From: a virus | Taxonomy: Duplodnaviria > Heunggongvirae > Uroviricota > Caudoviricetes | Length of the DNA: 64,000 nucleotides | Direction: 5' to 3' (one strand) | IMG/VR virus record: IMGVR_UViG_3300013902_000006 | In this document: positions 10,028-37,453 of the stretch, one piece after another | Layout: each line of letters begins with the position of its first letter | Numbering within the stretch: the stretch's first letter is position 1 | Notes under the pieces: generated by a model | The model's input: only the letters and a program-made list of their open reading frames with translations | Told to the model about the DNA's origin: nothing | Database searches by the model: none | Translations under genes and position numbers: made by a program

Positions 10028-11683
10028 CTATTCTGCCATTTCGTCTTCTTCTACCTCGTTGTTCTTTGTGAAATCCTTGTCAACAATATCGAAGATGCTT
10101 CCAATTTTCACTTTGTATTTCTTTGAGACGAAATCGCCATTGTTTATATTCTCATCTATCAGTCTCAGCAACTTTTCGGGAAGCACCCCCTCTTCAAGTA
10201 CCTTATCGACATCTTCTCTTTTAAGAGACGCTATACAATTATCATAAGATTCTTTTTCTTCACGAATCCCTTCTTTCTCCAACTCTTTCTGACGGTCAAG
10301 ATAATTTTGCTTTATCTTTCCCCAATCCATTCCACATTCCTTTGTATACGGAGGCACTTTATTGTTTTCTATCCAGAATTTTATCTCCTTATCCTCGATG
10401 GTCATCAATTGCTCATATGTATCTTGGTCGATTGTCTCATATGGCTGTCCTGCAACGAGTTGACTTTCGTTCTCCGTAAATTCCTTTCTATCCTTTGGGG
10501 AAGTTATTAGTATGTTATTTATTGTCTTGCCTTTTTCATTGACAGTGTAACGAATTTTTTCGTTAAAGCACACAAGCAGAGGTTTAATACGTTTATTAAA
10601 CATATCGATATATTTCTCTTTGTTATACTCAATGTCGTCTGAACAGAAGTGATCGTCCTCATCCTCGACAATATCATTAGGTAATCTAACACAATTAAAA
10701 ATGATAACATCCTTATCCTTTATTGATGGATATGCCTTGTGTATATAATCATCTTTTGATATGTATTTTTTCTTAGAATTTGGTGGAGTTAACACAATAG
10801 GGTCATTGGCTTTTTTAAGACGGTTGTATTCACTTTCCAATCCTTTTGACAGAGACACAATATTTCCTTTACGGTCAGTCTTAGGAGTGCCATCTTCATT
10901 GGTCATGTAATCGATTTCTTTCCCATCTCTTCCGTCAAAATAGTACTTAGTAACTCTTTGTACATCAGACACCGATTTCTTGTCACCTGTGTTAATATAA
11001 TAGATAGTGTCACCCATATTGACTGACAAGTTATCACGTATGGCTAATTCATACCAAGCTTGTCTTGCTTTCTTTGTACCACCAGCAGTTAACTGCTTGC
11101 AACTTTCCTTATATGTCTCGATGGAGGTTTTTATTTTGCCAACAGTCGCAATATCTTTCAAAGGAATTTGCATATTATAAATTTTCTCAATATAATCATA
11201 ATAATAGTTAAGAAAATCAGAACCCTTGCCGTGCAATAGCATATCAATGGCATTATTAAGAAACTTCTCAATATATATCGGCATCTTTTTTGATTTGATA
11301 GTGTTGCCTACCAGTTTCTTAGAACCATCAGGCATTAAATCAGCGTAATTTTTACGAGCGAATTGGATACAAGCGTCACAATACTCATCGATTCCTAAAC
11401 CGTTCTTTAATACTCCTCCATTGTATGCTTCATTAATAAATGTATCCTCGAATTCAGCAACATCGGCGTCGACCTCGGTGTATTCTTTTCCTTTCTTGAC
11501 ATTACGGCCGAGTCCCTTACCTATATAAGGATGCTCTTTTGTATAACGATATTTTAACGGTTTTTGGAAGTTGAACCCATCAGTATTACTTAATACGTTC
11601 ATTCCCAATGCATTAACAACAGTTCCATCTAATGAAATGTCGTATACATAATCATCTGTTTTGCCTAATTTTGTTATTTTCAT
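10028..11683 (-). CDS. gp43: DNA polymerase family B, C-terminal half, with N-terminal split-intein fragment (IntC)
   Basis: Begins with a 33-aa intein C-fragment ending in Asn, then TDGF, which completes motif C. Downstream PolB motifs ARKNYA, GNTIKSKKMP and GDTIYY are present. Confidence 0.9.
   Translation of the reverse strand: MKITKLGKTDDYVYDISLDGTVVNALGMNVLSNTDGFNFQKPLKYRYTKEHPYIGKGLGRNVKKGKEYTEVDADVAEFEDTFINEAYNGGVLKNGLGIDEYCDACIQFARKNYADLMPDGSKKLVGNTIKSKKMPIYIEKFLNNAIDMLLHGKGSDFLNYYYDYIEKIYNMQIPLKDIATVGKIKTSIETYKESCKQLTAGGTKKARQAWYELAIRDNLSVNMGDTIYYINTGDKKSVSDVQRVTKYYFDGRDGKEIDYMTNEDGTPKTDRKGNIVSLSKGLESEYNRLKKANDPIVLTPPNSKKKYISKDDYIHKAYPSIKDKDVIIFNCVRLPNDIVEDEDDHFCSDDIEYNKEKYIDMFNKRIKPLLVCFNEKIRYTVNEKGKTINNILITSPKDRKEFTENESQLVAGQPYETIDQDTYEQLMTIEDKEIKFWIENNKVPPYTKECGMDWGKIKQNYLDRQKELEKEGIREEKESYDNCIASLKREDVDKVLEEGVLPEKLLRLIDENINNGDFVSKKYKVKIGSIFDIVDKDFTKNNEVEEDEMAE
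11585..11683 (-). other. Split intein C-fragment (33 aa)
   Basis: MKITKLGKTDDYVYDISLDGTVVNALGMNVLSN|T: block F (YVYDIS), terminal Asn, Thr+1 nucleophile. Confidence 0.9.
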
Positions 11684-11693
11684 ATTTAAATTA

Positions 11694-12491
11694 TTACCTT
11701 AAACTAAAATCGTTTTTATTAATACCATTTAATATGTAATTCTCGTCATAATTAACATTATTAATATACATTATAGGTAAATTATGTTCTTTACAAAGTT
11801 TTTGCTTCGTCTTATCTCTTTCTTTTATTATTTTAAACTCTTGTAACGCCCATTCTTTTCCTCGTCCTGCGAAATCGACTGGTTCATAATGTTGTCGTCC
11901 TTGGCATTCAATCGCAATATGATAATCGGTCAAATAAAAATCTAAATATAAATTTATTTTATATTTAAGCCAAGTGAATGTTTTTTCTCTAACATAAGCT
12001 ATGTTGTTATTATCTAATAGGCTACAAAGATTTTTTTCCATCTTACTTTGTATTCTTCTGCCATTGCGACATTGTATACAGCCTCCATCCTTTGACGTAA
12101 TGTGGTCACAGGCAATTTTATGAAATAAATTTCCGCATCTTTTACATTTAATAGTTATAATAGAATGGCTATTTTCGTATTCATTTCTAATATTAGGATA
12201 GCAAAATAGGTCGTCAAACCTTTCATTAGTTATACTCAAAAAATGAATATAATTATTTTTTCTGAACGTCTTTGCATATTCTTTACCGCATATAGGACAA
12301 CCTTGTCCTTTTAAATGATTTTTAGGTGTTTGTGAAAAAATGCCATGAATAGGACATAGAATGTCCACTTTTGTTGTTTTATTTATAAAGTAAACATTAT
12401 TATATCCGTATTTCCCTTTATGGACGATTGTTGCATTATTTTTAAATTCTTCTTCTCTTTCTTTTCTTTTTAATTCATTCATTCTATACAA
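11694..12491 (-). CDS. Putative homing endonuclease: 2 zinc-ribbon (DUF723-like) repeats + PD-(D/E)XK/Vsr-like nuclease domain
   Basis: CPIHGIFSQTPKNHLKGQGCPIC repeat and C-terminal LYLDFYL..IAIECQGRQHY; lies inside the fractured polymerase locus. Confidence 0.75.
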   Translation of the reverse strand: MYRMNELKRKEREEEFKNNATIVHKGKYGYNNVYFINKTTKVDILCPIHGIFSQTPKNHLKGQGCPICGKEYAKTFRKNNYIHFLSITNERFDDLFCYPNIRNEYENSHSIITIKCKRCGNLFHKIACDHITSKDGGCIQCRNGRRIQSKMEKNLCSLLDNNNIAYVREKTFTWLKYKINLYLDFYLTDYHIAIECQGRQHYEPVDFAGRGKEWALQEFKIIKERDKTKQKLCKEHNLPIMYINNVNYDENYILNGINKNDFSLR

Positions 12492-12576
12492 TTTGTGTAA
12501 TTGTTTAATACACTGAAGTTATCGACAAAGTTACCGTTTATTTTCGTATTTACCAAGAATATTATACTAAAATCGG

Positions 12577-13986
12577 TTAAAACTCTATTTTTTTCTTCCA
12601 TTCGTATACAGAATTTCCGCTATCGAATATCCTATATGTCTCTTTTTCTATATCGATTATCTTCAAATATCGATGTCTATTAGCGACATAATAATAATTT
12701 GGTTCGGTATTTTTTAAGAACTTAAAACCGATATTTTTAAACTCATTTCCATTATCCCATCGTCTATCAATCTTGACTATAACAACGATAGGATTATTTT
12801 CATTCACGAAAAAATTAAAAAGTCCTTTTACACCATTTATTACCTTTGTATTTAGTCTATTGCAATATGTGACTAATTCATATTCGTCATCAGTTATTTT
12901 ATTAAATCCTAACAACGAGACCAATTCATTTTTATAAAAATTACCATATACTATTTGAGGATTAACGATATTATAAATTGAATTTGTTTTTAAAAAATCA
13001 ATACATTGTTTCGGAGATAACTTTTTAATAACACATAGTTCAGAGGAAATCTTATTTGGTACATTGTCTGTTATTTCTCTTATTTTAGATTTAACAATAT
13101 CTTTCTTAAATACCCATTCGTCTTCAAAAATATGCAGTAGTCGTATTCCTTGCTTAATACAATCTTCTGTCTTTTTCAAATGGTAGTGATTATTTTTACA
13201 ATATTCTTCACTATGCCATATTAAGCCATCGTGTTCTATTGCGATGTTTTTAGACGGAATATATATGTCAATTTCCTTGCCATCTGTCAATATTTTACGA
13301 TTATTCTTAATAACTTCGAGACCAAGTTCATTTTCGATGAAATCTGATATTTCATTTTCTTGAGTTGAGACAACATTGGAACAATAAGGACAACCGTGAC
13401 CGCATAGATGCTTGTTTGGCATTTGCCAATAATGATGACCATTGGCACATATTATTTCAATTGGAATCTTTGCCCCTTTGTATTCCGCAAGGCTATAATC
13501 CTCGGTATTTTTATGAATAATATTGGCTTTTTTGACGAACACCTCTTTTGTCATCAACATATTATTAGCGTTCTGTTCGGTAGCGCATTTAGGGCAGCCG
13601 TGACCTTGTAGATGTGAATATGCCTTCTGAGTGAAAATCCCGTGCTTTGGACAAATAATGTCAACGTCTTTAGTTGCTCCTTGATATACTGTTATTGTAT
13701 AACGATATTTAAAGTTGTGGACAATATTTGCCTTAGTAATAAATTGTTCGTTTGTAAACGATTGAGTTTTTGCCATATTTCGTTTTCCACATTTCGGACA
13801 CCCGCAACCTTTTAAGTGACTATACATATTTTGCAGAAAATCTCCATGTATGGGGCATGTTATTGTTACTCGTCTTTTAGTATCTTTTTTCGAGATATCT
13901 GTTTTTGTATAGTCGTAATAATCTCCGAATATATCTCTTGCTTTACTTTTAAATTCATCAGTCGATTTAATGACAGTTTTATACAT
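12577..13986 (-). CDS. Putative homing endonuclease: 3 zinc-ribbon repeats + PD-(D/E)XK nuclease + GNAT-like C-terminal domain (Hef-like)
   Basis: Three C-x-x-(x)-H-G..H-L-x-G-x-G-C-P-x-C repeats; EIDIYIPSKNIAIEHDGLIWH and HIFEDEW; C-terminal ELVSLLGF..KIDRRW..GF. Confidence 0.75.
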   Translation of the reverse strand: MYKTVIKSTDEFKSKARDIFGDYYDYTKTDISKKDTKRRVTITCPIHGDFLQNMYSHLKGCGCPKCGKRNMAKTQSFTNEQFITKANIVHNFKYRYTITVYQGATKDVDIICPKHGIFTQKAYSHLQGHGCPKCATEQNANNMLMTKEVFVKKANIIHKNTEDYSLAEYKGAKIPIEIICANGHHYWQMPNKHLCGHGCPYCSNVVSTQENEISDFIENELGLEVIKNNRKILTDGKEIDIYIPSKNIAIEHDGLIWHSEEYCKNNHYHLKKTEDCIKQGIRLLHIFEDEWVFKKDIVKSKIREITDNVPNKISSELCVIKKLSPKQCIDFLKTNSIYNIVNPQIVYGNFYKNELVSLLGFNKITDDEYELVTYCNRLNTKVINGVKGLFNFFVNENNPIVVIVKIDRRWDNGNEFKNIGFKFLKNTEPNYYYVANRHRYLKIIDIEKETYRIFDSGNSVYEWKKKIEF

Positions 13987-14010
13987 TGTTATTTCTTATT
14001 AAGATAGAAC

Positions 14011-14050
14011 AAATGATTCTACCGAGACAAATTATCTGATAGAATCATTT
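14011..14050. promoter_or_regulatory. Intergenic hairpin between polB-N and the first embedded nuclease gene
   Basis: Perfect 11-bp inverted repeat aaatgattcta / tagaatcattt; no U-tract on either side. Confidence 0.45.
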
Positions 14051-14061
14051 ATATGACTACA

Positions 14062-14628
14062 TTATAAAAAGTTAAATCCCGCTACAAATACCTTTGAATA
14101 GTTTTCAATTGTTATTTGTTTATCTAATCTCTTGCACAGTTCACTTGCAAATCGCTTTCTTATATTTACTTCACAATTTAAAACTTCGATAGGTATCTTC
14201 ATTGGGAATTTTACTGTGAAGTCTAATAATTTATTAAATTTCTCTTTTGTTATTTTTTTATCTCTTTTACAGAAAGGCTCTGATTTGTATTCTAATACCG
14301 TGTTTTTATTAATCTCGGATGGCTTTACCTTTTCTTTATTTTCATCAAACAACGAATGGTCTTCGGTTATGTCACTGACACAGGTCTTACTATTTCGTTT
14401 ATCCATGACACGGTACATATCTTTGCCCGTCTTGTGACGATATATGTAGCTTGGTTTATACCATCCACTTCGACATAAGACAGTATAATTTTTCTCAGTC
14501 GTATCGTATTCTCTACCTAACGCATCCTTGCGTATGTTATCAATATCTATTAATTCAGATATAGGTTTGATGTCAATCAAATTTGTATTATCATATTTGA
14601 TAAACATAGGTGTATCACCAGTAAAACT
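14062..14628 (-). other. Split intein N-fragment (188 aa)
   Basis: GD|SFTGDTPMFIK is block A with Ser1; SDITEDHSLF is block B (TxxH); ends at the polB-N stop codon. Confidence 0.9.
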
Positions 14629-16605
14629 GTCACCTACAATAGGATGATAATTGTATTCGTCATTAGGCGTATTAGTATTAAAACTTCCCAATGTGGAAAA
14701 ATGGCTAATCATAAGACGAAGCATTTGTCGACCACGGCAAGTTGTTTCCTCCGCACATTCCAAATCAGACCAAGGGAACACACTTCCAGAACCGTATGAT
14801 CCGAAGAAGCCATTGCCTGTTATCTTTAGAGGAAGTTGCATTTTGTCTGCCATCGCCTTTTGGCTTGATAACTGCGCTATCTTGACCTTTGTCTCCTTAA
14901 TTTCATTCTCATCTGTAATACCCTTTAATTTTTCTTTAAGTTCATCTGCCTCTTTACCATATTTGGCTTTCAGACCCTTATAATGTTCACGTTGTGTAAG
15001 AATATACTCCAAAAGGGCATTCATTACACCCATAATATCGATTGGACTCTTGATACCGAAAGTAAGAATAATCGAAGGATATAGTGAATTATAATCCAAT
15101 TTAACGATTCTATCCACATATCCGACTTTCAATAATCGTGACAATCCTCCTGTAAATTTCTTGGTTTCAATCAATTCAGGAATAGCCAGATCATGTTGAT
15201 AACTCCACGCCATCATAATGTATTTCCATATTGCAGCAGTACCCATTGTACACATTTTCTCATATGATACTGGGAGCATTTTACCTACCAAGAAATTAGG
15301 TTGATTATAACGGTTTTCTACCTTATCTGTCTCCCAAAGGTCATCCAACAGATAACGCTGAATTATATAGCGTCCTGTCGTTATTTCATACTCCTTACCT
15401 GTTTTATTATTAATTAATTTTTTATCTTCACGGGTGTACAGAGGAAACGTTCCATTATCATCAGTATAAGTCTTTTCAAGACGTTTATCATCTATCTTAA
15501 ACCATTCGCCATCGGTATCATTAAATGCATATGTAGGTGTCAAGTCCAACCACGTTGTATTAATTTCTTTGCCTGGTACATATACACGATTAGGCTTATT
15601 CATCTTTGAGTAGGCGCAGATATATTTAAGGGTTGCCTTTTTCATATTAGAATCGATTGCTTGCGCTCTACGAACGGCGAACAATGCATCAACGATATTA
15701 TGACCCCACATTATAGTAGGATAATAATACTCCATTTCGCCACCAAGTTTCAATACTTGTTGTTTCTTTTTCTTATATATCCCACGATTATAGAAAATTT
15801 TCTTGGTGAAATCCAACAACGAGCTTCCGTGGAGCTTTAATCGTTCATCAATAAAATACCAGTCGAAGTTCTCAGTATTATATCCTGCAATAATATCAGG
15901 TTGTTCATTATATATGATTTCAAAAAATTCCTTGAGACCGATTATCTCATTTTTGAACTTTTCTTCACCTTCGCCATCGATGGTAATGATTTTTTCAAAT
16001 CCCTTGTTTGTTCGTATACCAATCTGTGAAATCGCATGTATCTGTGGATTAAGACCCTCGGTCTCCAAGTCGAATGACATACGAATAAGGTCATCGTAAT
16101 CATCATATCCCTTAAACATTCGTCGACCTGTATAAATCATATATTGCTCTGTAGGTGCTACCGCAATAAATTCACGAAGTCCGTAATTAGCATCGGTCTG
16201 TTGCGGATATATTGGTCTACCAGCTTCCTTGAAAAAGTCCATGAATTTCTTATAGGACATCGCAAATTTCGCATAGAACAATACCCTATATCCATTCTCC
16301 ATTCTTGGGTGGATGTTTCCCTCATCGTCGGCGACACGTAATCCTTTACAAGTAATACCGTACATCGCCATTTTCTCCCTCAGAATCTTTCTGTCGCCAT
16401 CGAAAAGCTTTCGGGCTGCACTTTGTTTGCACCATACAAAAGGATAAAAATTATCCTTTAACATTTTCAACTTATTATTTTTTCCCCGAAAGATGACAGT
16501 CATTTTATCATCGTCATAAGACCCTTCTATCTTTATAATATGTTCCATCGGGTCTGTACCTGAGAGGAATTTATCGATATCCTCTTTTGTAATGTTATTT
16601 GCCAT
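14062..16605 (-). CDS. gp43: DNA polymerase family B, N-terminal half (3'-5' exonuclease + palm motifs A and B) with C-terminal split-intein fragment (IntN)
   Basis: ExoI SFDLETEG, ExoII YNTENFDW, motif A KLDYNSLYPS, motif B KITGNGFFG, then IVGD followed by intein block A. Confidence 0.92.
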   Translation of the reverse strand: MANNITKEDIDKFLSGTDPMEHIIKIEGSYDDDKMTVIFRGKNNKLKMLKDNFYPFVWCKQSAARKLFDGDRKILREKMAMYGITCKGLRVADDEGNIHPRMENGYRVLFYAKFAMSYKKFMDFFKEAGRPIYPQQTDANYGLREFIAVAPTEQYMIYTGRRMFKGYDDYDDLIRMSFDLETEGLNPQIHAISQIGIRTNKGFEKIITIDGEGEEKFKNEIIGLKEFFEIIYNEQPDIIAGYNTENFDWYFIDERLKLHGSSLLDFTKKIFYNRGIYKKKKQQVLKLGGEMEYYYPTIMWGHNIVDALFAVRRAQAIDSNMKKATLKYICAYSKMNKPNRVYVPGKEINTTWLDLTPTYAFNDTDGEWFKIDDKRLEKTYTDDNGTFPLYTREDKKLINNKTGKEYEITTGRYIIQRYLLDDLWETDKVENRYNQPNFLVGKMLPVSYEKMCTMGTAAIWKYIMMAWSYQHDLAIPELIETKKFTGGLSRLLKVGYVDRIVKLDYNSLYPSIILTFGIKSPIDIMGVMNALLEYILTQREHYKGLKAKYGKEADELKEKLKGITDENEIKETKVKIAQLSSQKAMADKMQLPLKITGNGFFGSYGSGSVFPWSDLECAEETTCRGRQMLRLMISHFSTLGSFNTNTPNDEYNYHPIVGDSFTGDTPMFIKYDNTNLIDIKPISELIDIDNIRKDALGREYDTTEKNYTVLCRSGWYKPSYIYRHKTGKDMYRVMDKRNSKTCVSDITEDHSLFDENKEKVKPSEINKNTVLEYKSEPFCKRDKKITKEKFNKLLDFTVKFPMKIPIEVLNCEVNIRKRFASELCKRLDKQITIENYSKVFVAGFNFL

Positions 16606-20181: not shown

Positions 20182-20206
20182 ATGGAGCTAAATTTCATAG
20201 CTCCAT
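20182..20206. terminator. Hairpin at a convergent gene junction
   Basis: 9-bp inverted repeat atggagcta / tagctccat overlapping the stop codon of the minus-strand nuclease gene. Confidence 0.55.
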
Positions 20207-21838
20207 TCTGTATATCATTCTACCACAATCGTATATTCGATATATACCACGTTCATACATAATATTGTGTTCGGTCTTGTTTTTATCAAAGCCTTGTTCA
20301 ACGAGTTTTCTTTTACAGTATTTTGATTTATTTTCACGTTTGTGACCTATTATATAGGTATAATCGACATCAGTATCTTTAATATGTTTGAAACCATTAG
20401 AAACAAAATTATTTTCGCAGTTCCAACGTTTATCGACATAAGATATGATATCTTTTGGTTTAAAGTCTAAAATAAAATGCCTTAATAGTTTTGAAAATCC
20501 TCCTATTACGGTTGTATTTAAAATTGTACAAAAATTACACAACTCATATGAATCACCTTTGATATTTTTAAACGACATTATTGCAACGATTTCATTATCA
20601 TATTTTAAACAATAATTGATAGAAGGAGCAAAAGCATATCCAAGATAATTTTTATATAAGAATTGTTTAACCGAAACCTTATCTAACTTTTGTAGTATGC
20701 ATTTTCTTGCGTAAATTTTAGAATGATTTTTACGCAATAAATTTCTGATTCTTGATTCAACTACCTCTCTTTTATTTAACCATTCGTCTTCGAATATATG
20801 GATTACTCGAATATCTTGTTCCTTACAATAATAAGTTTTCTTAGAATGATAATATTTATCTTTTTTCAATTCACAATGCCAATATAGACCATCGAATTCA
20901 AATGCCATCTTTTCATCTGGTATATAAATGTCTAATTCTTGACCATTTTTAAGCTTCAGTTTCTCAGTATTAACATTTAATTCAGATATAAAGTTATCAA
21001 CCTCTTTTTCTTCTTTGGAAAAGGTACAACGGCACTTAGGACATCCATAACCTTGCAATAAATTGGCAGGCGTTATTTCGAATAATCCATGTTTTCGGCA
21101 ATTTACCTTTATATGAGTGGAACTATTTTTATATATTAAATCCTCAAAGGTATATTTATCTCCATGTATCTGTATTGCATCTTTTATAAATTCTTCTCTT
21201 GTCTTTGAAAGTTTACTTGCCGCCGCAATATTTCCACATTTTGGGCATCCATTCTTTCTGTTTATATGCTGATAAGGGTATTGCCAAAATTCTCCATGTT
21301 CGGGACATATGATACAGACCTTAGTATCGTAATCAATGTATTCAGTTTTACTATAATCATATTTATCGCCATGTATCTTATGTGCTTCTTTAATTAATGT
21401 CTCTGTCGTCATAAAAGAATTATGTCCACATTTGGGGCAACCTTGTCCACTTAGATGCTTAGATGGAGTTTGTTCAAATATTCCATGTATAGGACATCCT
21501 ATTTTAACTTTTGTCATTGCATTAATATATTCAACTTGTTCATATTTATATCGTTCTTTATGTATTATTTTAGCTTTTTTAATAAATTCATTTGCATTAG
21601 ATTTTACTTTATTGGCATTAGATATTTGTGAACATTGACGACAACCGCATCCATTAAACAAAGATTTAGGTGTTATATAAAAGTCATTATGTGTAGGACA
21701 AATTAATTTAATCTTTGTCCCTATGTTAATATAATTAATATCTTCAACTCCCCCATACTTTTCTCCATGTATTTCCTTGATTCTTTTTACGACTTCGTCT
21801 TTAGTTAATTTCATAATACTGTAATTTACATCATACAA
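20195..21838 (-). CDS. Putative homing endonuclease: 4 zinc-ribbon repeats + PD-(D/E)XK nuclease + GNAT-like domain (Hef-like)
   Basis: CPTH/CPIH/CPEH/CRKH repeats; ELDIYIP..MAFEFDGLYWH and HIFEDEW; IYARKC..GGFSKLL..SYVDKRW..IYDCG. The start may be the ATG at 21814. Confidence 0.75.
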   Translation of the reverse strand: MYDVNYSIMKLTKDEVVKRIKEIHGEKYGGVEDINYINIGTKIKLICPTHNDFYITPKSLFNGCGCRQCSQISNANKVKSNANEFIKKAKIIHKERYKYEQVEYINAMTKVKIGCPIHGIFEQTPSKHLSGQGCPKCGHNSFMTTETLIKEAHKIHGDKYDYSKTEYIDYDTKVCIICPEHGEFWQYPYQHINRKNGCPKCGNIAAASKLSKTREEFIKDAIQIHGDKYTFEDLIYKNSSTHIKVNCRKHGLFEITPANLLQGYGCPKCRCTFSKEEKEVDNFISELNVNTEKLKLKNGQELDIYIPDEKMAFEFDGLYWHCELKKDKYYHSKKTYYCKEQDIRVIHIFEDEWLNKREVVESRIRNLLRKNHSKIYARKCILQKLDKVSVKQFLYKNYLGYAFAPSINYCLKYDNEIVAIMSFKNIKGDSYELCNFCTILNTTVIGGFSKLLRHFILDFKPKDIISYVDKRWNCENNFVSNGFKHIKDTDVDYTYIIGHKRENKSKYCKRKLVEQGFDKNKTEHNIMYERGIYRIYDCGRMIYRMEL

Positions 21839-22807: not shown

Positions 22808-24700
22808 TTATTTATTAGCTTCTGATTTAATTATTGTATCCATCATATTCTTTTTGTTTATCACCGTATCATACATATGTCTCGATATTGAATCATTGAA
22901 CAATTGATATACACACGTTACGTCCTTTTTCTGCGTGAGACGATAAATTCTATCCTCTATTTGTGCGTTGTCGGCAGCTACCCAAGAATAACTATTAAAC
23001 ACCATTTTATTAGCGACTACCAGATTAAGTCCTACGCCAGCAGCGATTATCTGTCCTATAAACACCTTAACATTATCATCGTTATTAAACGATTGTTCTG
23101 CCTTATCCTTCGCCTTTGATGTCATCTTTCCATCATATACGACGCATTTCTTTTTGTAGTACTTCTTGAACATCTCGATTTCCTCAGTAAATGTACAAGC
23201 AATAATGACTTTACCACCTTCTTCAAGCATTTCATCGACTAATTTAATGGTATTCTCGACCATCTGTTTTGCCAAGTATTGCCTTACTAGTATTCCTTCG
23301 ACAAGTTGTCTGTATTGTTCGCTATTATCGTTCCCTTGCTCAGTCTGTGCCTCTACATACTCTTTCCATAGGCGTTCATATTCTATTCTTTGTGCCTCAT
23401 TTAAATCGTATGTCTTTGTGATTATGTTTTTATCCACCATATCGGTCATTTCAGATAACAGACGACGTATGTATAGATGCTTTATCTTTTCTCTCAACTC
23501 CTCAAGATTAGATGCTCCGCTAAACGTCGTCACTTCTCTGCCTGTCTTTAGATGAAACGTCTTTGCATCGCAGTATCTTTTTATAAAATAACGATAATCT
23601 CTTGTTATCGGGGCATCTATTAGTCTTAAGATATAATATAAATTAATTGGTTTATTAGTAAGAGGTGTACCTGTAAGTAAGAATACATAATTTGGATTTG
23701 CCCTCTTCAAAAAATCATATATAACCTTATACCTCGTTGAGGAATTATTCGACAGTTTTTGTGCTTCATCAATAATTACACAATCGAATTTATTTAAGAA
23801 CAACGGACTATTCTCCAAGCATTCCTTTATTACGTCCTTTCTAATGGATTTCTTTTTCTTTTCGACCATTTTTCCATCTTTGGTCTTAACCATTACAGGT
23901 TTTCTTATCTCCTCACATTCTCCATTTTCGTTATATACATATTCAGTCTCATAAACAGTTTCGAGAGGCAAGTCATAATAACTATCTAATATATCATAAT
24001 TTGTTATTATATATTTTTTATCTGTTATCTCGTCTTTTGAACCCTGTATTATTTGAATATCATTTTCATCATTGTATAATGACAACTCTCTTTTCCAATT
24101 AGTCTTCAAAGACGCAGTCGTAATTATTAATATTTTCTTTGAACCGCTTGCCATAGCAGCAACGATTGACTGAACTGTCTTCCCACTTCCCATTCCGTCC
24201 GCCATGATGCATTTGCGATTTGCCAACAAGAACTTGACCCCCTCCTTTTGAAGTTTTTTCAGTTTTCTGCCATCCTTTGCAATATTATCATAATAATCAA
24301 AATCGACTTCTATCGTACTACTATCGACAGTTTCCAATGGAGTTAGTATATTGTTCTTGTTCACATATGTCAATACAGGTGGAACACTTTGTCTGTATTG
24401 GATATAACAATGGAAACTATTCCCCATCTCGCCGACGACAGTCGAAATTCTTATTTTTTCGGGATTAAATCCTATCAAGAATTTTTCATTCAATTTTTGA
24501 CCAAAGTCAGTGCTTATTTTTACAGTTTTATTCAATTCATAAGGAATAAAATCCTCGTTGTTTATAATGTATTCGATATCGAAGTCACTAAGTGAATAGT
24601 GACCTTTAATGACCTTGTATTGCAGGTACTTCAAGTAATTGCTTTGTCCATTATATATTTTGATTATTTCATATGCTTTATCTACCGCATTGGTTTTCAT
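22808..24700 (-). CDS. SNF2/SWI2-family (HARP-like) helicase
   Basis: QKEGVKFL, Walker A ADGMGSGKT, Walker B IIDEAQ, LTGTP, AAGVGLNL and QIEDRIYR motifs. Confidence 0.88.
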   Translation of the reverse strand: MKTNAVDKAYEIIKIYNGQSNYLKYLQYKVIKGHYSLSDFDIEYIINNEDFIPYELNKTVKISTDFGQKLNEKFLIGFNPEKIRISTVVGEMGNSFHCYIQYRQSVPPVLTYVNKNNILTPLETVDSSTIEVDFDYYDNIAKDGRKLKKLQKEGVKFLLANRKCIMADGMGSGKTVQSIVAAMASGSKKILIITTASLKTNWKRELSLYNDENDIQIIQGSKDEITDKKYIITNYDILDSYYDLPLETVYETEYVYNENGECEEIRKPVMVKTKDGKMVEKKKKSIRKDVIKECLENSPLFLNKFDCVIIDEAQKLSNNSSTRYKVIYDFLKRANPNYVFLLTGTPLTNKPINLYYILRLIDAPITRDYRYFIKRYCDAKTFHLKTGREVTTFSGASNLEELREKIKHLYIRRLLSEMTDMVDKNIITKTYDLNEAQRIEYERLWKEYVEAQTEQGNDNSEQYRQLVEGILVRQYLAKQMVENTIKLVDEMLEEGGKVIIACTFTEEIEMFKKYYKKKCVVYDGKMTSKAKDKAEQSFNNDDNVKVFIGQIIAAGVGLNLVVANKMVFNSYSWVAADNAQIEDRIYRLTQKKDVTCVYQLFNDSISRHMYDTVINKKNMMDTIIKSEANK

Positions 24701-30327: not shown

Positions 30328-31857
30328 TTGCATTTCATGAAAATACGCATTAAAATGAGAAAATTAGGAAACAACCAATATGAACATATAACACGGGACG
30401 AAATAATACGAAGATTCAATGAAGTACATAAAGGAAGGTACATTTATGATAATGTAGAATATCAGTCAATGAACAAAGAGGTTGAAATTATATGTCCTAA
30501 GCACGGTATATTTAAACAGGTACCACAAAATCATCTAAAAGGTCAAGGCTGCCCATTGTGTGCTAAAGAAAAAAGGAACAAAAAAGAACGAGAAAAAGGA
30601 TTACAAAAATTAATAGACGAAGGAAGTAAAAGGTTTAATAATAAATTTATATATGATGAAGTTAAATATATTAATAATAAAACTAATGTAACAATAATAT
30701 GTCCTATACATGGTAGAATACAAATGACTCCTTATGATCATTTACATAGTGAATTTGGTTGTAAACAATGCGCATTGGATGATATAGGAAGAAAACGAGT
30801 AAATAGATATAAAATAACATTTCTGAATAAGGCAAACGATTTACATAATAATAAATATAAATATTGTCTTGATGACTATAATGGGGTTGATTGTAAGATG
30901 AAAATAACGTGCCCAATACATGGAATGTTTATACAAACGATACATGACCACCTACAGGGTTGTGGCTGTCCTAAATGTAGTGTTAAACTATCCAAGGCAG
31001 AGGACGAAATTGCTGAAGCAATTAAAAATTTTGGAAACACTGATTTAATTCGAAGAGATAGAAACATATTAAGGCCAAAAGAACTCGACATCTATATACC
31101 GTCAAAGAAAATCGCAATAGAATATGATGGACTTATATGGCATAGTGAGAAGTTTAAAGATAAGGCGTTTAACTATCATTTAGATAAGACTGAAAAATGT
31201 GCCGAGAAGGGTGTTCGTCTAATCCACATATTCGAGGATGAGTGGCTTGAGAAGCCACAAATCATCAAGTCGATGCTCAGTAATATCCTCGGGAAGACAA
31301 GCGGCCGTCTGTACGCACGTCAGTGCGAGGTACGTGACGTTGATTCAAGGACTGCGATGCAGTTCCTTGATGATAATCACATACAGGGACGTTGCAAGGC
31401 AAAGTACCATTACGGACTTTATTATAACGGAGAACTCGTTTCGTTAATGACATTAGGAAAGACCCGTCAGCAGAGGAAGTACAACGAGAACTACGACAAC
31501 ACGTGGGAGTTGTTGCGTTTCTGCAACAAGTTGGACACGTCGGTCGTCGGTGGGGCAAGCAAGTTGCTCAAACATTTCATTAGTGAGGTAAAACCTCACC
31601 GAATCGTGACCTACGCTGACAAGCGTTGGAGTGTCGGCAACCTGTACGAGAGGTTGGGCTTCGCCCACACGCACGACAGCAAGCCGAATTACTTCTACGT
31701 GGTGGGTCAACACCGTGAGAATCGTTTCAAGTACCGCAAGGGTGAGCTTGTAAAGCAAGGGTACGATTCAGTCAAGTCCGAACACGAGATAATGCTTGAA
31801 CGTGGAATACCGAGGATATATGATTGCGGAACGATGGTGTTCGAAATGAAACTATAA
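30328..31857 (+). CDS. Putative homing endonuclease: 3 zinc-ribbon repeats + PD-(D/E)XK nuclease + GNAT-like domain (Hef-like)
   Basis: CPKH/CPIH repeats; ELDIYIP..IAIEYDGLIWH and HIFEDEW; LYARQC..GGASKLL..TYADKRWSVGNLY. The track start is TTG; an internal ATG (30337 or 30355) is more likely. Confidence 0.78.
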   Translation: MHFMKIRIKMRKLGNNQYEHITRDEIIRRFNEVHKGRYIYDNVEYQSMNKEVEIICPKHGIFKQVPQNHLKGQGCPLCAKEKRNKKEREKGLQKLIDEGSKRFNNKFIYDEVKYINNKTNVTIICPIHGRIQMTPYDHLHSEFGCKQCALDDIGRKRVNRYKITFLNKANDLHNNKYKYCLDDYNGVDCKMKITCPIHGMFIQTIHDHLQGCGCPKCSVKLSKAEDEIAEAIKNFGNTDLIRRDRNILRPKELDIYIPSKKIAIEYDGLIWHSEKFKDKAFNYHLDKTEKCAEKGVRLIHIFEDEWLEKPQIIKSMLSNILGKTSGRLYARQCEVRDVDSRTAMQFLDDNHIQGRCKAKYHYGLYYNGELVSLMTLGKTRQQRKYNENYDNTWELLRFCNKLDTSVVGGASKLLKHFISEVKPHRIVTYADKRWSVGNLYERLGFAHTHDSKPNYFYVVGQHRENRFKYRKGELVKQGYDSVKSEHEIMLERGIPRIYDCGTMVFEMKL

Positions 31858-35593: not shown

Positions 35594-37453
35594 ATGCCAA
35601 AGATATATACGACAGAAAGCATAACAGAAAGATTTAAATTAAAGAACAGACAAGGTTTCGATTATTCCAAGGTCGATTACAAAGGAATGGGTATTCCTGT
35701 AACAGTAATTTGTCCTATCCACGGAGATATAGAGTTGACTCCCTCTCAGATATTAAGAAACGTTGGTTGCCCTATATGTACAAATGATAAGTTAACACAA
35801 CTTAGGACAAATAAAAATGATTTCATAAGAGATGCCATTAGTATGCATCAAGACAAGTATGATTATTCAAAGGTGGAATATAAAGGAGTAATAGAGAAAG
35901 TCTGTATCATTTGTCCCGAACACGGTGAGTTTTGGCAATCACCACGTATACATTTAAGGGGTTGTGGTTGTCCTATATGCGGCTCGGTAAAACAAAACGA
36001 TGCGACAAGACTAACTAAAAATGATTTCATACGAAAGGCGAGAGAAATCCATGGATACAAATACGATTACTCAAAAGTAAACTATATCAATAATTTAACT
36101 AAGATTTGTATAATCTGCCCTAAACACGGAGAGTTTTGGCAAACACCAAATAAGCATTTATTAGGTCAAGGATGTCCTATATGTGGAGGAACTAAAAGAT
36201 TAACAACGGAAGAATTCATTAGAAAGGCGAGAGAAATCCATGGAGATAAATACGACTATACAAAAGTAGACTACATAAATAATTCGGTCAAGGTTTGTAT
36301 CATTTGTCCTGAACATGGAGAATTTTGGCAAACGCCGCATAATCATCTGATAGGGCATGGTTGCCCTAAATGCAAGAACAAAAAGATTTCAAATTCAGAG
36401 ACGAAAACTACCGAAAAGTTTATATTAGAAGCGAGAGAAATCCATGGAGATAAATACGATTATTCGAGAACGAAATATCTAAGTGCCAAAGATAAAATCC
36501 TCATAATATGTCCCGAACACGGAGAGTTTTGGCAAGAGGCAAGTTCGCATCTAAGTGGTTGTGGCTGCCCAAAGTGTAACCATATAATTAGCAAAGCCGA
36601 AATGGAGATAACAGACTTCATTAAGAGTAGCCACGAAATAGAGGTAATTACGAATAACCGCAATATGCTTACGGGACATAAGGAGTTGGATATTTACATC
36701 CCTTCATTGAAAATTGCATTCGAATACGATGGAATGGTATGGCATAGTGATAGGTTTAAGATAGATTCAAATTATCATCTTAATAAGACGGAAGAATGCT
36801 TGAAACAAGGAATAAAATTATATCATATATTTGAATATGAATGGATGAATAAACGAGAAATCGTAAAACGTAAAATAGAACGGATATTGGGTATTTTCGA
36901 TATCGAAAACAATGTATTAAACAAATGTAATGTTATGGAGATAAATGAAGAAATGGCCAAGAATTTTAATGAGACAAACAATTTGCAAGGACATTTCGCC
37001 TCTTCGTTGTACATAGGTGGATTCTATAATAGCAAGTTAGTATCCGTGATGGCATTATTAAGAGAGAATAATAATGAATGGAGAATAACAAGACTCAGTT
37101 GCAATACAAATAATTACGTTGTTTTTAAAAAGTCAATGAATTATTTCATAAATAAATACAAACCGCACAAAATAGAAGCATTCGACGACAGGAGATGGGT
37201 TGCTGAACAAACTGATAGCTTATATAATAGATTGGGCTTCGATTTTGCGGATGTAATTTCACCTGATTATGGTTACACGAGAGGACAGAATGATTACATA
37301 ACAAAGACTTTCTTCGAAAAAGATAAACTGATTAAACAATATAGTAAAATGCACGAACTTACTGATGATATGACAGTGGATGAAATGATCAGAAAACTTG
37401 GTTATTATCGCATATACGACTGTGGACAATATAAATACGTGTGGAAACGGTAA
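35594..37453 (+). CDS. Putative homing endonuclease: 5 zinc-ribbon repeats + PD-(D/E)XK nuclease + GNAT-like domain (Hef-like)
   Basis: Five CP(I/E/K)HG repeats; [18 protein letters not shown] and HIFEYEW; AFDDRRW..LYNRLGF..IYDCG. Confidence 0.78.

Follow-up and report, generated by a model that had tools for sequence, protein, structure and literature searches.

We report here on a family-B DNA polymerase gene (polB) that is broken in two within a 64,000-nt stretch of DNA from an uncultured jumbo phage (IMG/VR record IMGVR_UViG_3300013902_000006), and we will call this whole stretch the window. The locus is very probably a fractured gene, in which the replicative polymerase is made in two pieces, separated at the pol-c site, with a split intein shared between them. 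This reading builds on the anatomy of the locus, its exact boundaries, the conservation and homology of its parts and a series of alleles observed in relatives. Once translated, the N-terminal part of the intein (IntN) and its C-terminal part (IntC) would pair into one Hint domain, which would carry out class-1 splicing by means of oxygen nucleophiles: Ser1 would form the first ester, Thr+1 would attack it, and the terminal Asn would cyclise. The outcome would be a peptide bond ...IVGD-TDGF... and a complete polymerase of about 135 kDa, with the junction peptide ...IVGDTDGFNFQK. The ancestor of this intein would have been a contiguous LAGLIDADG intein, in which a break inside the endonuclease domain would have left a remnant of the second half as the tail of IntN. 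The gap would then be non-essential DNA, a landing pad for free-standing homing-type nucleases made of zinc-finger arrays and an EDxHD (Vsr-like) core, which would arrive, leave and get swapped, and which probably carry the cassette between co-infecting phages.

All four open reading frames (ORFs) of the locus lie on the minus strand, at the coordinates and in the layout given by an earlier interpretation of the same DNA made from its letters alone (the sequence-only reading). The gene of the N-terminal half, polB-N (14062-16605, 847 aa), encodes a 659-aa N-extein (14629-16605) with the exonuclease domain and polymerase motifs A and B. This extein ends in ...NYHPIVGD, that is, with the first Asp of motif C, and is followed by the 188-aa IntN (14065-14628), whose first residues are SFTGDTP. 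Residues 1-113 of IntN make up its Hint lobe (14290-14628), which has Ser1, the block B motif TEDH and, as the NX-type His of Ser1 inteins, the conserved His65, while residues 114-188 make up a helical tail (14065-14289), of which residues ~139-188 are a remnant of a second LAGLIDADG half-domain without the catalytic GDG. The gene of the C-terminal half, polB-C (10028-11683, 551 aa), opens with the 33-aa IntC (11585-11683), which contains the block F motif VYDISLDG and a block G ending in Ser-Asn (...GMNVLSN). It goes on with a C-extein of 518 aa (10028-11584, stop included), which opens with Thr+1-Asp-Gly (TDGFNF), the rest of motif C, and leads into the thumb region. From the polB-N stop to the polB-C start we measured 2,378 bp, in agreement with the separation of about 2.4 kb and the 469- and 265-aa nuclease genes previously described. 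This gap is occupied by two genes for free-standing nucleases, nucA (12577-13986, 469 aa) and nucB (11694-12491, 265 aa, TTG start), which are arranged in tandem and are not nested as the sequence-only reading had it.

A strong RNA hairpin (14009-14052, minus strand) lies upstream of nucA, within the 75 nt that separate this gene from the stop codon of polB-N; its minimum free energy is -20.1 kcal/mol (z-score -5.05), and none of 200 shuffled sequences was as stable. A scan for sigma-70 promoters was uninformative, with 53 sites found for 38 expected, and a scan for terminators gave no terminator-like site on the coding strand. We take it as probable that the genes of the locus are transcribed together.

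Both polB halves match, in the correct order, one contiguous polymerase gene of Salinibacter phages, and the polymerases of these distant phages were the only ones matched in the annotated phage collection. The N half matches the Pfam families DNA_pol_B_exo1 (PF03104) and DNA_pol_B (PF00136) up to about residue 659, and polB-N matches PHROG 262 (DNA polymerase); polB-C has no match in Pfam or PHROG. The C-extein is collinear with the PolB of the Salinibacter phages and with P0007, an intein-less single-chain relative of 1,179 aa that is 84% identical. Across the junction, P0007 reads ...NYHPIVGDTDGFNFQKPLKY..., which is the end of the window's N-extein fused to the start of its C-extein, and the boundaries of the intein are therefore exact. 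The same stretch of P0007, ...NYHPIVGDTDGFNFQKPLKYRYTKEHPY..., gives ...IVGDTDGFNF... without interruption. P0007 can in turn be aligned to the archaeal PolB (KOD/Tgo) through motif A (DYNSLYPS) and motif B, and the alignment with the KOD polymerase reaches, and ends at, the catalytic DTD 540-542. This places the break in motif C, after its first Asp and before its Thr-Asp, which bears out the D|TD site named in the sequence-only reading. GD|TDG is found without any insert in P0007 and in dozens of other loci, so that the insertion is precise and in frame and intein-less alleles exist. The corresponding position, YGD|TDS, was defined by Ogata et al. as the pol-c intein allele site of archaeal PolB and of Mimivirus, and the split PolB of N. 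equitans is broken at pol-c too (PMC549080). As to a possible kinship of our intein with other pol-c inteins, the only matches are weak, namely that of the endonuclease part of the contiguous intein of relative L009 to PI-PkoII (E 0.0033) and that of 2cw7, at Foldseek rank 8.

The residues on which splicing depends are highly conserved. A large protein search returned thousands of relatives, with the split form in hundreds of clusters, and the counts given here refer to the 120 best clusters of polB-N relatives, 118 of which end with an IntN. Ser1 is present in the window and in all 118 of these, as is the block B motif T(E/Q)DH (118/118), which in the window is TEDH at IntN residues 88-91. 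The length of IntN is 175-201 aa in 117 of the 118, the remaining one measuring 112 aa. His65 is invariant. It aligns with the His of other Ser1 inteins (9hth, 5o9j; Mja TFIIB) and is consistent with the NX-motif His known from cysteine-less inteins (PMC10189870). On the other side of the break, the split loci read through the junction show the IntC pattern ...VYDISLDGT.VNA.G.N..SN followed by TDG, with the exception of L027, which ends in HN. The succession of the C-terminal Asn and Thr+1 (in the window ...VLSN|TDGF) is also found in every intein-bearing relative with a readable junction. IntC shares 70-95% identity with its counterparts in the relatives as well as with the C-terminal end of contiguous inteins, and the Hint lobe of IntN shares 40% with the N lobe that L009 has in its contiguous intein. 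All the residues for class-1 splicing, i.e., Ser1, the block B TEDH, the terminal Asn and Thr+1, are present in the window.

Structure prediction points in the same direction. The AF2 model of IntN has a predicted local distance difference test score (pLDDT) of 89.5, and when it was compared with the PDB by Foldseek, ranks 1-13 were all inteins, NeqN/NeqC and PI-PkoII among them (probability 0.75-1.00); a profile search with IntN matches intein chains as well. The modelled complex of IntN and IntC reaches an interaction score (ipSAE) of 0.86, to be compared with 0.00 for the best control. This mark is attained by 51 of 78 solved complexes and by 2 of 108 mismatched pairs, although passing the test may partly reflect likeness to already solved split-intein structures. 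Contacts agree to at least 92% between model runs, with a partner pLDDT of at least 72, and the models thus support a predicted association of IntN and IntC.

Substitution rates point to purifying selection on the locus. For the N-extein, the ratio of nonsynonymous to synonymous substitution rates (dN/dS) is 0.025; it amounts to 0.087 in IntC and to 0.047 in nucA (measured against the L002 orthologue), these ratios being upper-bound impressions, as dS is saturated even against the nearest relative or cannot be computed for several segments. A relative whose genome (351 kb) is rated 100% complete has a single PolB, which is split too, and no PolA (family A) or DnaE polymerase was found in it. 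Together with the exact boundaries, the conserved residues, the Hint fold and the predicted pairing, this purifying selection and this single polymerase uphold the naturally split intein that the sequence-only reading had proposed.

Our survey of 80 related polB loci from viral contigs revealed a whole series of alleles. The pol-c site is empty in most of the distant relatives and in L011, L012, L017 and L018. It holds a contiguous intein of 355-358 aa, carrying a LAGLIDADG endonuclease domain (Pfam LAGLIDADG_3), in L009, L037-L041, L045, L050, L058 and L074. In the split relatives, the content of the gap goes from nothing to one to three nuclease genes or several genes: there is no gene in the 28-164-bp gap of L004 and L019, one nuclease gene in L005, L006, L008, L015, L021, L023, L033 and L036, two nuclease genes in the window and in L002, L003, L010 and L022, a 133-aa ORF and one nuclease in L001, and a 5.6-kb multi-gene insert in L013.

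This series also informs on the origin of the split. The window's IntN exceeds by about 80 aa that of the usual natural split inteins (~100 aa, PMC11923092), and its tail can be aligned with the contiguous inteins where their second LAGLIDADG half-domain begins; the first half-domain is skipped and the catalytic GDG is missing. In BLASTP, this appears as a second segment, in which IntN residues 144-188 match residues 228-278 of the L009 intein. When the tail alone was compared with the contiguous inteins by hhalign, the probability was 93.8% (E 1.7e-7), and the whole-profile comparison supports the same relationship. The tail is modelled as helical, with a pLDDT above 90, and its last helix touches IntC in the complex model. 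The split falls at the endonuclease insertion site of the Hint fold, with IntN ending in a remnant of the second LAGLIDADG half and IntC beginning before block F. The break point is identical in all the split lineages, which argues for one break only, inside the endonuclease domain, in keeping with the 2009 model of fractured genes (PMC2677866). A search of the available literature on LAGLIDADG remnants in split inteins found nothing relevant, which is not proof of novelty.

The two nucleases of the gap belong to one superfamily, and both carry DUF723/DUF4379 treble-clef zinc-finger repeats. NucA consists of these repeats, an EDxHD (Vsr-like) core and a shortened C-terminal domain of GNAT fold; at its N-terminus, two to three such treble clefs stand in place of NUMOD/HTH modules. 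It matches PHROG 559/3339 (homing endonuclease), and the best PDB match of the nucA-type profile, across the catalytic core, is 3r3p (I-Bth0305I; E 0.0011). The invariant positions of this type, E210, D240 and H258, together with the acidic cluster FEDEW, are kept in nucA. NucB (PHROG 559/9084/7140) resembles the nucA type with 100% probability across fingers and core (hhalign), yet it has a variant core, LDFYL..IAIECQGRQH, in which the catalytic signature is E-C-Q-G-R-Q-H without FEDEW, and it lacks the GNAT domain. Single-sequence PDB searches with nucA and nucB returned nothing meaningful, and neither did the search with the nucB-type profile. In L001 and L005, the nuclease next to IntC in the gap matches residues 4-154 of nucB at 58-62% identity; for the catalytic part of nucB, the nearest sequences are paralogs of the window (36-39%). 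As these two parts have different nearest relatives, nucB looks chimeric from sequence comparison.

The zinc-finger nucleases are numerous in the window, with eight paralogs in 64 kb (at 11694, 12577, 17615, 20195, 30328, 32295, 33692 and 35594). Foldseek identifies the C-terminal third of nucA (12577-13050) as a GNAT fold, and a domain of this fold also ends the nucA-type paralogs at 30328-31857, 35594-37453 and 20195-21838. The GNAT domains of the nucA type match acetyltransferases in Foldseek with a target-normalised template modelling score (TM-score) of up to 0.71, the domain of nucA itself being shortened and partly modelled at low confidence. One nucA-type paralog matches PHROG 1384, "Mom-like DNA modification protein".

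The alleles at the pol-c site appear to be mobile. On the extein tree, at least 10 changes are needed to account for the three architectures. In particular, L008 (split intein with a nuclease) and L009 (contiguous intein) are sister tips of this tree. Their exteins are 80-100% identical in DNA (mostly at least 90%) right up to the junction, whereas the N lobes of their inteins are only 45-70% identical. Nearly identical exteins with divergent inteins indicate that phages of such close similarity have exchanged alleles and that the exchange has sharp borders at the site. In L004, the 164 bp of the gap hold no gene, yet a 41-aa remnant of a nuclease C-terminus is present there (E 3.8e-16). A sliding comparison of identity between the window and P0007 detected no gene-conversion tract around the junction, a region too conserved to tell.

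Turnover can be seen within one population, in the contigs of four source runs that hold the window (X1-X4). Three of these runs, X1, X3 and X4, contain contigs of higher depth (48, 114 and 19, respectively) that have 1,019 other letters in place of the 866 bases 11660-12525, a variable cassette on the minus strand that comprises nucB and the first 8 codons of IntC. The nucB form is a minor variant, at a depth of 4-9, and nucB is therefore not fixed; one X2 contig covers the whole stretch in the form of the window. Near the nucA stop (12577-12579), all four source runs have a deletion of 1 or 2 bases at 12588 relative to the window, which reflects either variation between strains or a difference in how this end of nucA was assembled. 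The sequential invasion suggested by the sequence-only reading is supported in outline, given gaps with anything from no gene to at least three, the nuclease remnant of L004 and the polymorphic nucB slot. It does not hold for the nesting of the nucleases, and with eight copies of the family in the window it does not require every copy to be specific for polB.

Several observations weigh against this fractured-gene reading. Protein splicing itself is a step that we infer. The penultimate residue of the intein is Ser and not the His that usually assists Asn cyclisation, and this is so in all the split alleles read through the junction except L027, which has His, as do most contiguous relatives. 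Inteins without the penultimate His are nonetheless known to splice. Pfam identifies no intein domain in the IntN of the window, in that of L004 or in polB-C/IntC. The best Foldseek E value of IntN is only 3.8e-3, all of them being above 1e-3, modest scores that we attribute to a chain holding only half a Hint fold. The change of the penultimate His to Ser could mean that the intein halves still pair but no longer splice, a dead intein acting as the clamp of a non-covalent two-piece polymerase, and the strong predicted pairing would be expected with or without the chemistry. We find this quite unlikely: no change in Ser1, the block B TxxH, the NX-type His, the terminal Asn or Thr+1 is seen across 118 clusters, nor in lineages with exteins of only 45% identity, while intein relics normally lose these residues, and an unspliced insert of 221 aa would separate the two catalytic Asp of motif C. 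The window is also only part of a phage genome, so that other polymerases are possible elsewhere, and the split gene might be a decaying pseudogene in a phage replicated by one of them. This is very improbable in view of the two intact ORFs, the low dN/dS of the N-extein, the persistence of the split form in hundreds of clusters and the complete relative that has only a split PolB. Finally, the interruption could be removed at the RNA level, by a group I intron or by trans-splicing, since related gut jumbo phages often carry group I introns (PMC12880540) and one is present in the polB C-extein of L033. We give this hardly any credence: the break is flanked in frame by two Hint-domain halves, the nucleases have their own starts and stops, and no Rfam family matches anywhere in the window, on which ground a group I intron was rejected as the cause of the break.

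The link between the nucleases and polB is the other point at which the evidence pulls both ways, because nucA and nucB belong to a family that is not confined to this gene: the eight copies in the window are found at polB and in six other places. L085, a close intein-less relative, matches the window in gene order (helicase, RNase T-like, neck protein, two small genes, polB) but lacks nuc547, nuc446, nucA and nucB around polB, and hence at least some copies are general gap-fillers. Relatives carry about 5 to 13 paralog matches, and two split relatives have no nuclease in the gap. The nucleases could accordingly be passengers, a genome-wide swarm that settles in any tolerated intergenic gap and neither cuts polB nor moves the intein. 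This is on balance rather unlikely, though it deserves serious attention. Indeed, the gap of most split loci contains one or more members of the family, the nucleases next to IntC share 58-62% identity between loci in their DNA-binding N-terminus, above any window paralog, and the swap of intein alleles with sharp borders requires a break or a recombination at the site. Passenger and homing nucleases can both exist, each explanation holding for different copies. A separate candidate met in the window, a fractured helicase upstream at 22808-24700, was rejected, its L085 orthologue being 637 aa long for 630 aa here.

Beyond the fractured gene itself, we tentatively consider, as a possibility somewhat short of even, that the pol-c site of this phage clade is a live arena for three competing alleles: the empty site, the contiguous LAGLIDADG intein and the split intein with its nucleases. 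The split would have arisen once, inside the second LAGLIDADG half, the remnant on IntN would have been kept as an assembly clamp, and the cassette formed by IntN, nuclease and IntC would move horizontally as a unit, with a hopped 8-nt gap in four of the relatives. A dead piece of endonuclease would thus be reused as a clamp that helps the fragments to assemble, and the hopped gap may protect the site from the nuclease.

This 8-nt insert is the most novel item that we met, and it is found in relatives and not in the window. It lies directly after the Thr-Asp-Gly codons in L021:8060-8090, L016:650-690, L027:630-670 and L084:6009-6037, in the sequence context GGC TGA A(A/T) GG(T/C) TTY. These four contigs are diverged, their C-exteins being only 48-60% identical to each other. 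The frame of IntC stops at the TGA of the insert, and a C-extein of about 495 aa is intact in the -1 frame, except in L084. A ribosomal hop, in which a peptidyl-tRNA-Gly would pass from GGC over UGAAW to the matching GGY, would restore TDGFNF, as we infer from the sequence alone, and a -1 shift at the insert would give TDGL(K/N)GFNF as an alternative. The IntC beside the insert is nearly identical in L016, L021 and L084 despite their differing exteins, which suggests that the insert may travel with the cassette.

Other oddities were observed in the polymerase genes of relatives. At L084:6337-6490, the C-extein is cut short by a stop after 103 aa and goes on about 150 nt further along in a different frame, without any Rfam match there. 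L033, which also has the split intein, carries a group I intron in its polB C-extein (L033:8302-8606; Rfam RF00028, 70.6 bits), so that selfish elements of several kinds accumulate in the polymerase gene of this clade. The same interruption of the C-extein was seen by tblastn in L036, with no Rfam match. In L019 (5003-7972), the match of the N-extein comes in two pieces, and 334 aa lie between the projected end of the N-extein and the stop of the IntN ORF; there may be a further insertion upstream of the intein in this locus, where the gap to IntC is only 28 bp.

The arrangement as such is known, since jumbo phages in which an endonuclease gene lies between the halves of a split PolB intein have already been described. 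Fractured genes were described in 2009 by Dassa, London, Stoddard, Schueler-Furman & Pietrokovski (PMC2677866), who found Vsr-like (EDxHD) nucleases at half of the loci, reported hairpins upstream of the endonuclease ORFs and proposed a model in which the nuclease invades the intein at its endonuclease site. The locus of the window has much in common with them: a phage gene of DNA metabolism, a split intein, a free-standing endonuclease between the halves on the same strand, and an upstream hairpin. No family-B polymerase is found among the loci of that study; its mentions of B-type polymerases are earlier cases (N. equitans and T4-like gp43), and the terms "PolB" and "polymerase B" do not occur in its text. 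Compared with those loci, the window has two tandem nucleases, a LAGLIDADG remnant in IntN (188 vs ~100 aa), and zinc-finger arrays with a GNAT-fold domain in its nucleases instead of NUMOD/HTH. The precedents cited in the sequence-only reading can indeed be found in the literature, the fractured genes in this study and the pol-c site of archaea and Mimivirus in the work of Ogata et al., which also covers the N. equitans split. I-Bth0305I (3r3p), the best solved match to the nucA-type core, with which it shares the acidic and His positions, serves as prototype for the EDxHD, Vsr-like homing endonucleases, a family that came to light in fractured genes (Taylor et al. 2011, PMC3239194). It is intron-encoded and binds DNA through NUMOD/HTH, whereas nucA stands as a gene of its own, and its product has two to three treble-clef fingers and ends in a GNAT fold.

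Among phages, a close parallel is that of the Pseudomonas jumbo phages MIJ3 / PA5oct (Imam et al. 2019), whose PolB is likewise shared between two genes that carry a putative split intein and enclose a single free-standing homing endonuclease gene (PMC6892783). MIJ3 shares Ser1 and a block B ...VTEDHS... with the window, but it differs by its HNH nuclease, by a block G ending in HN, by a Ser at +1, and by the single nuclease where the window has two. The polymerase genes of gut jumbo (Jug) phages are often split by endonuclease sequences, according to a recent paper (Sci Adv 2026, PMC12880540), whose main text describes no split-intein halves at the polymerase break. Natural split inteins of phage-type PolB have also been characterised biochemically in the Aes123 PolB1 of T4-like Aeromonas phages (PMC11923092) and in the PolB16 OarG of a sheep gut metagenome (PMC10189870). 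They resemble that of the window in Ser1, in the oxyester chemistry with Ser/Thr+1 and in the NX-motif His, and differ in their lengths, 120+39 aa for Aes123 and an atypical 15+168 aa for PolB16, against 188+33 aa with a penultimate Ser here.

Outside phages, N. equitans (Choi et al. 2006; 5oxz/5oxx) likewise has a naturally split intein at the pol-c site of a family-B polymerase, and NeqN/NeqC are among the structural matches to our IntN. In that archaeal, thermophilic case, the halves are at distant loci with no nuclease between them, and trans-splicing has been shown by experiment, while here it is predicted. The contiguous pol-c inteins of archaeal (e.g., PI-PkoII) and Mimivirus PolB occupy the same point, (Y)GD|TD(S/G), and the relatives L009 and L037 likewise have contiguous LAGLIDADG inteins. 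These archaeal and Mimivirus inteins are single chains with an internal LAGLIDADG endonuclease, whereas the intein of the window is split and its LAGLIDADG is a non-catalytic remnant. What sets the window apart is a matter of degree: the pol-c site in a phage, the LAGLIDADG remnant on IntN, the penultimate Ser, the two tandem nucleases of new domain layout, and an unusually complete series of alleles with turnover within a population.

A polymerase whose active site would be formed only after two proteins have been spliced shows how far phages tolerate selfish elements. The more useful result is the natural series of alleles in one orthologous gene, which extends from the empty site to the swapping of cassettes within one population, and which makes the 2009 gene-breaking model of the origin of split inteins directly testable on real alleles. 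Cysteine-less split inteins are called rare in the protein-engineering literature, as stated in one such article (PMC12707363), and this clade offers hundreds of natural variants of a mesophilic split intein without a catalytic cysteine (Ser1/Thr+1).

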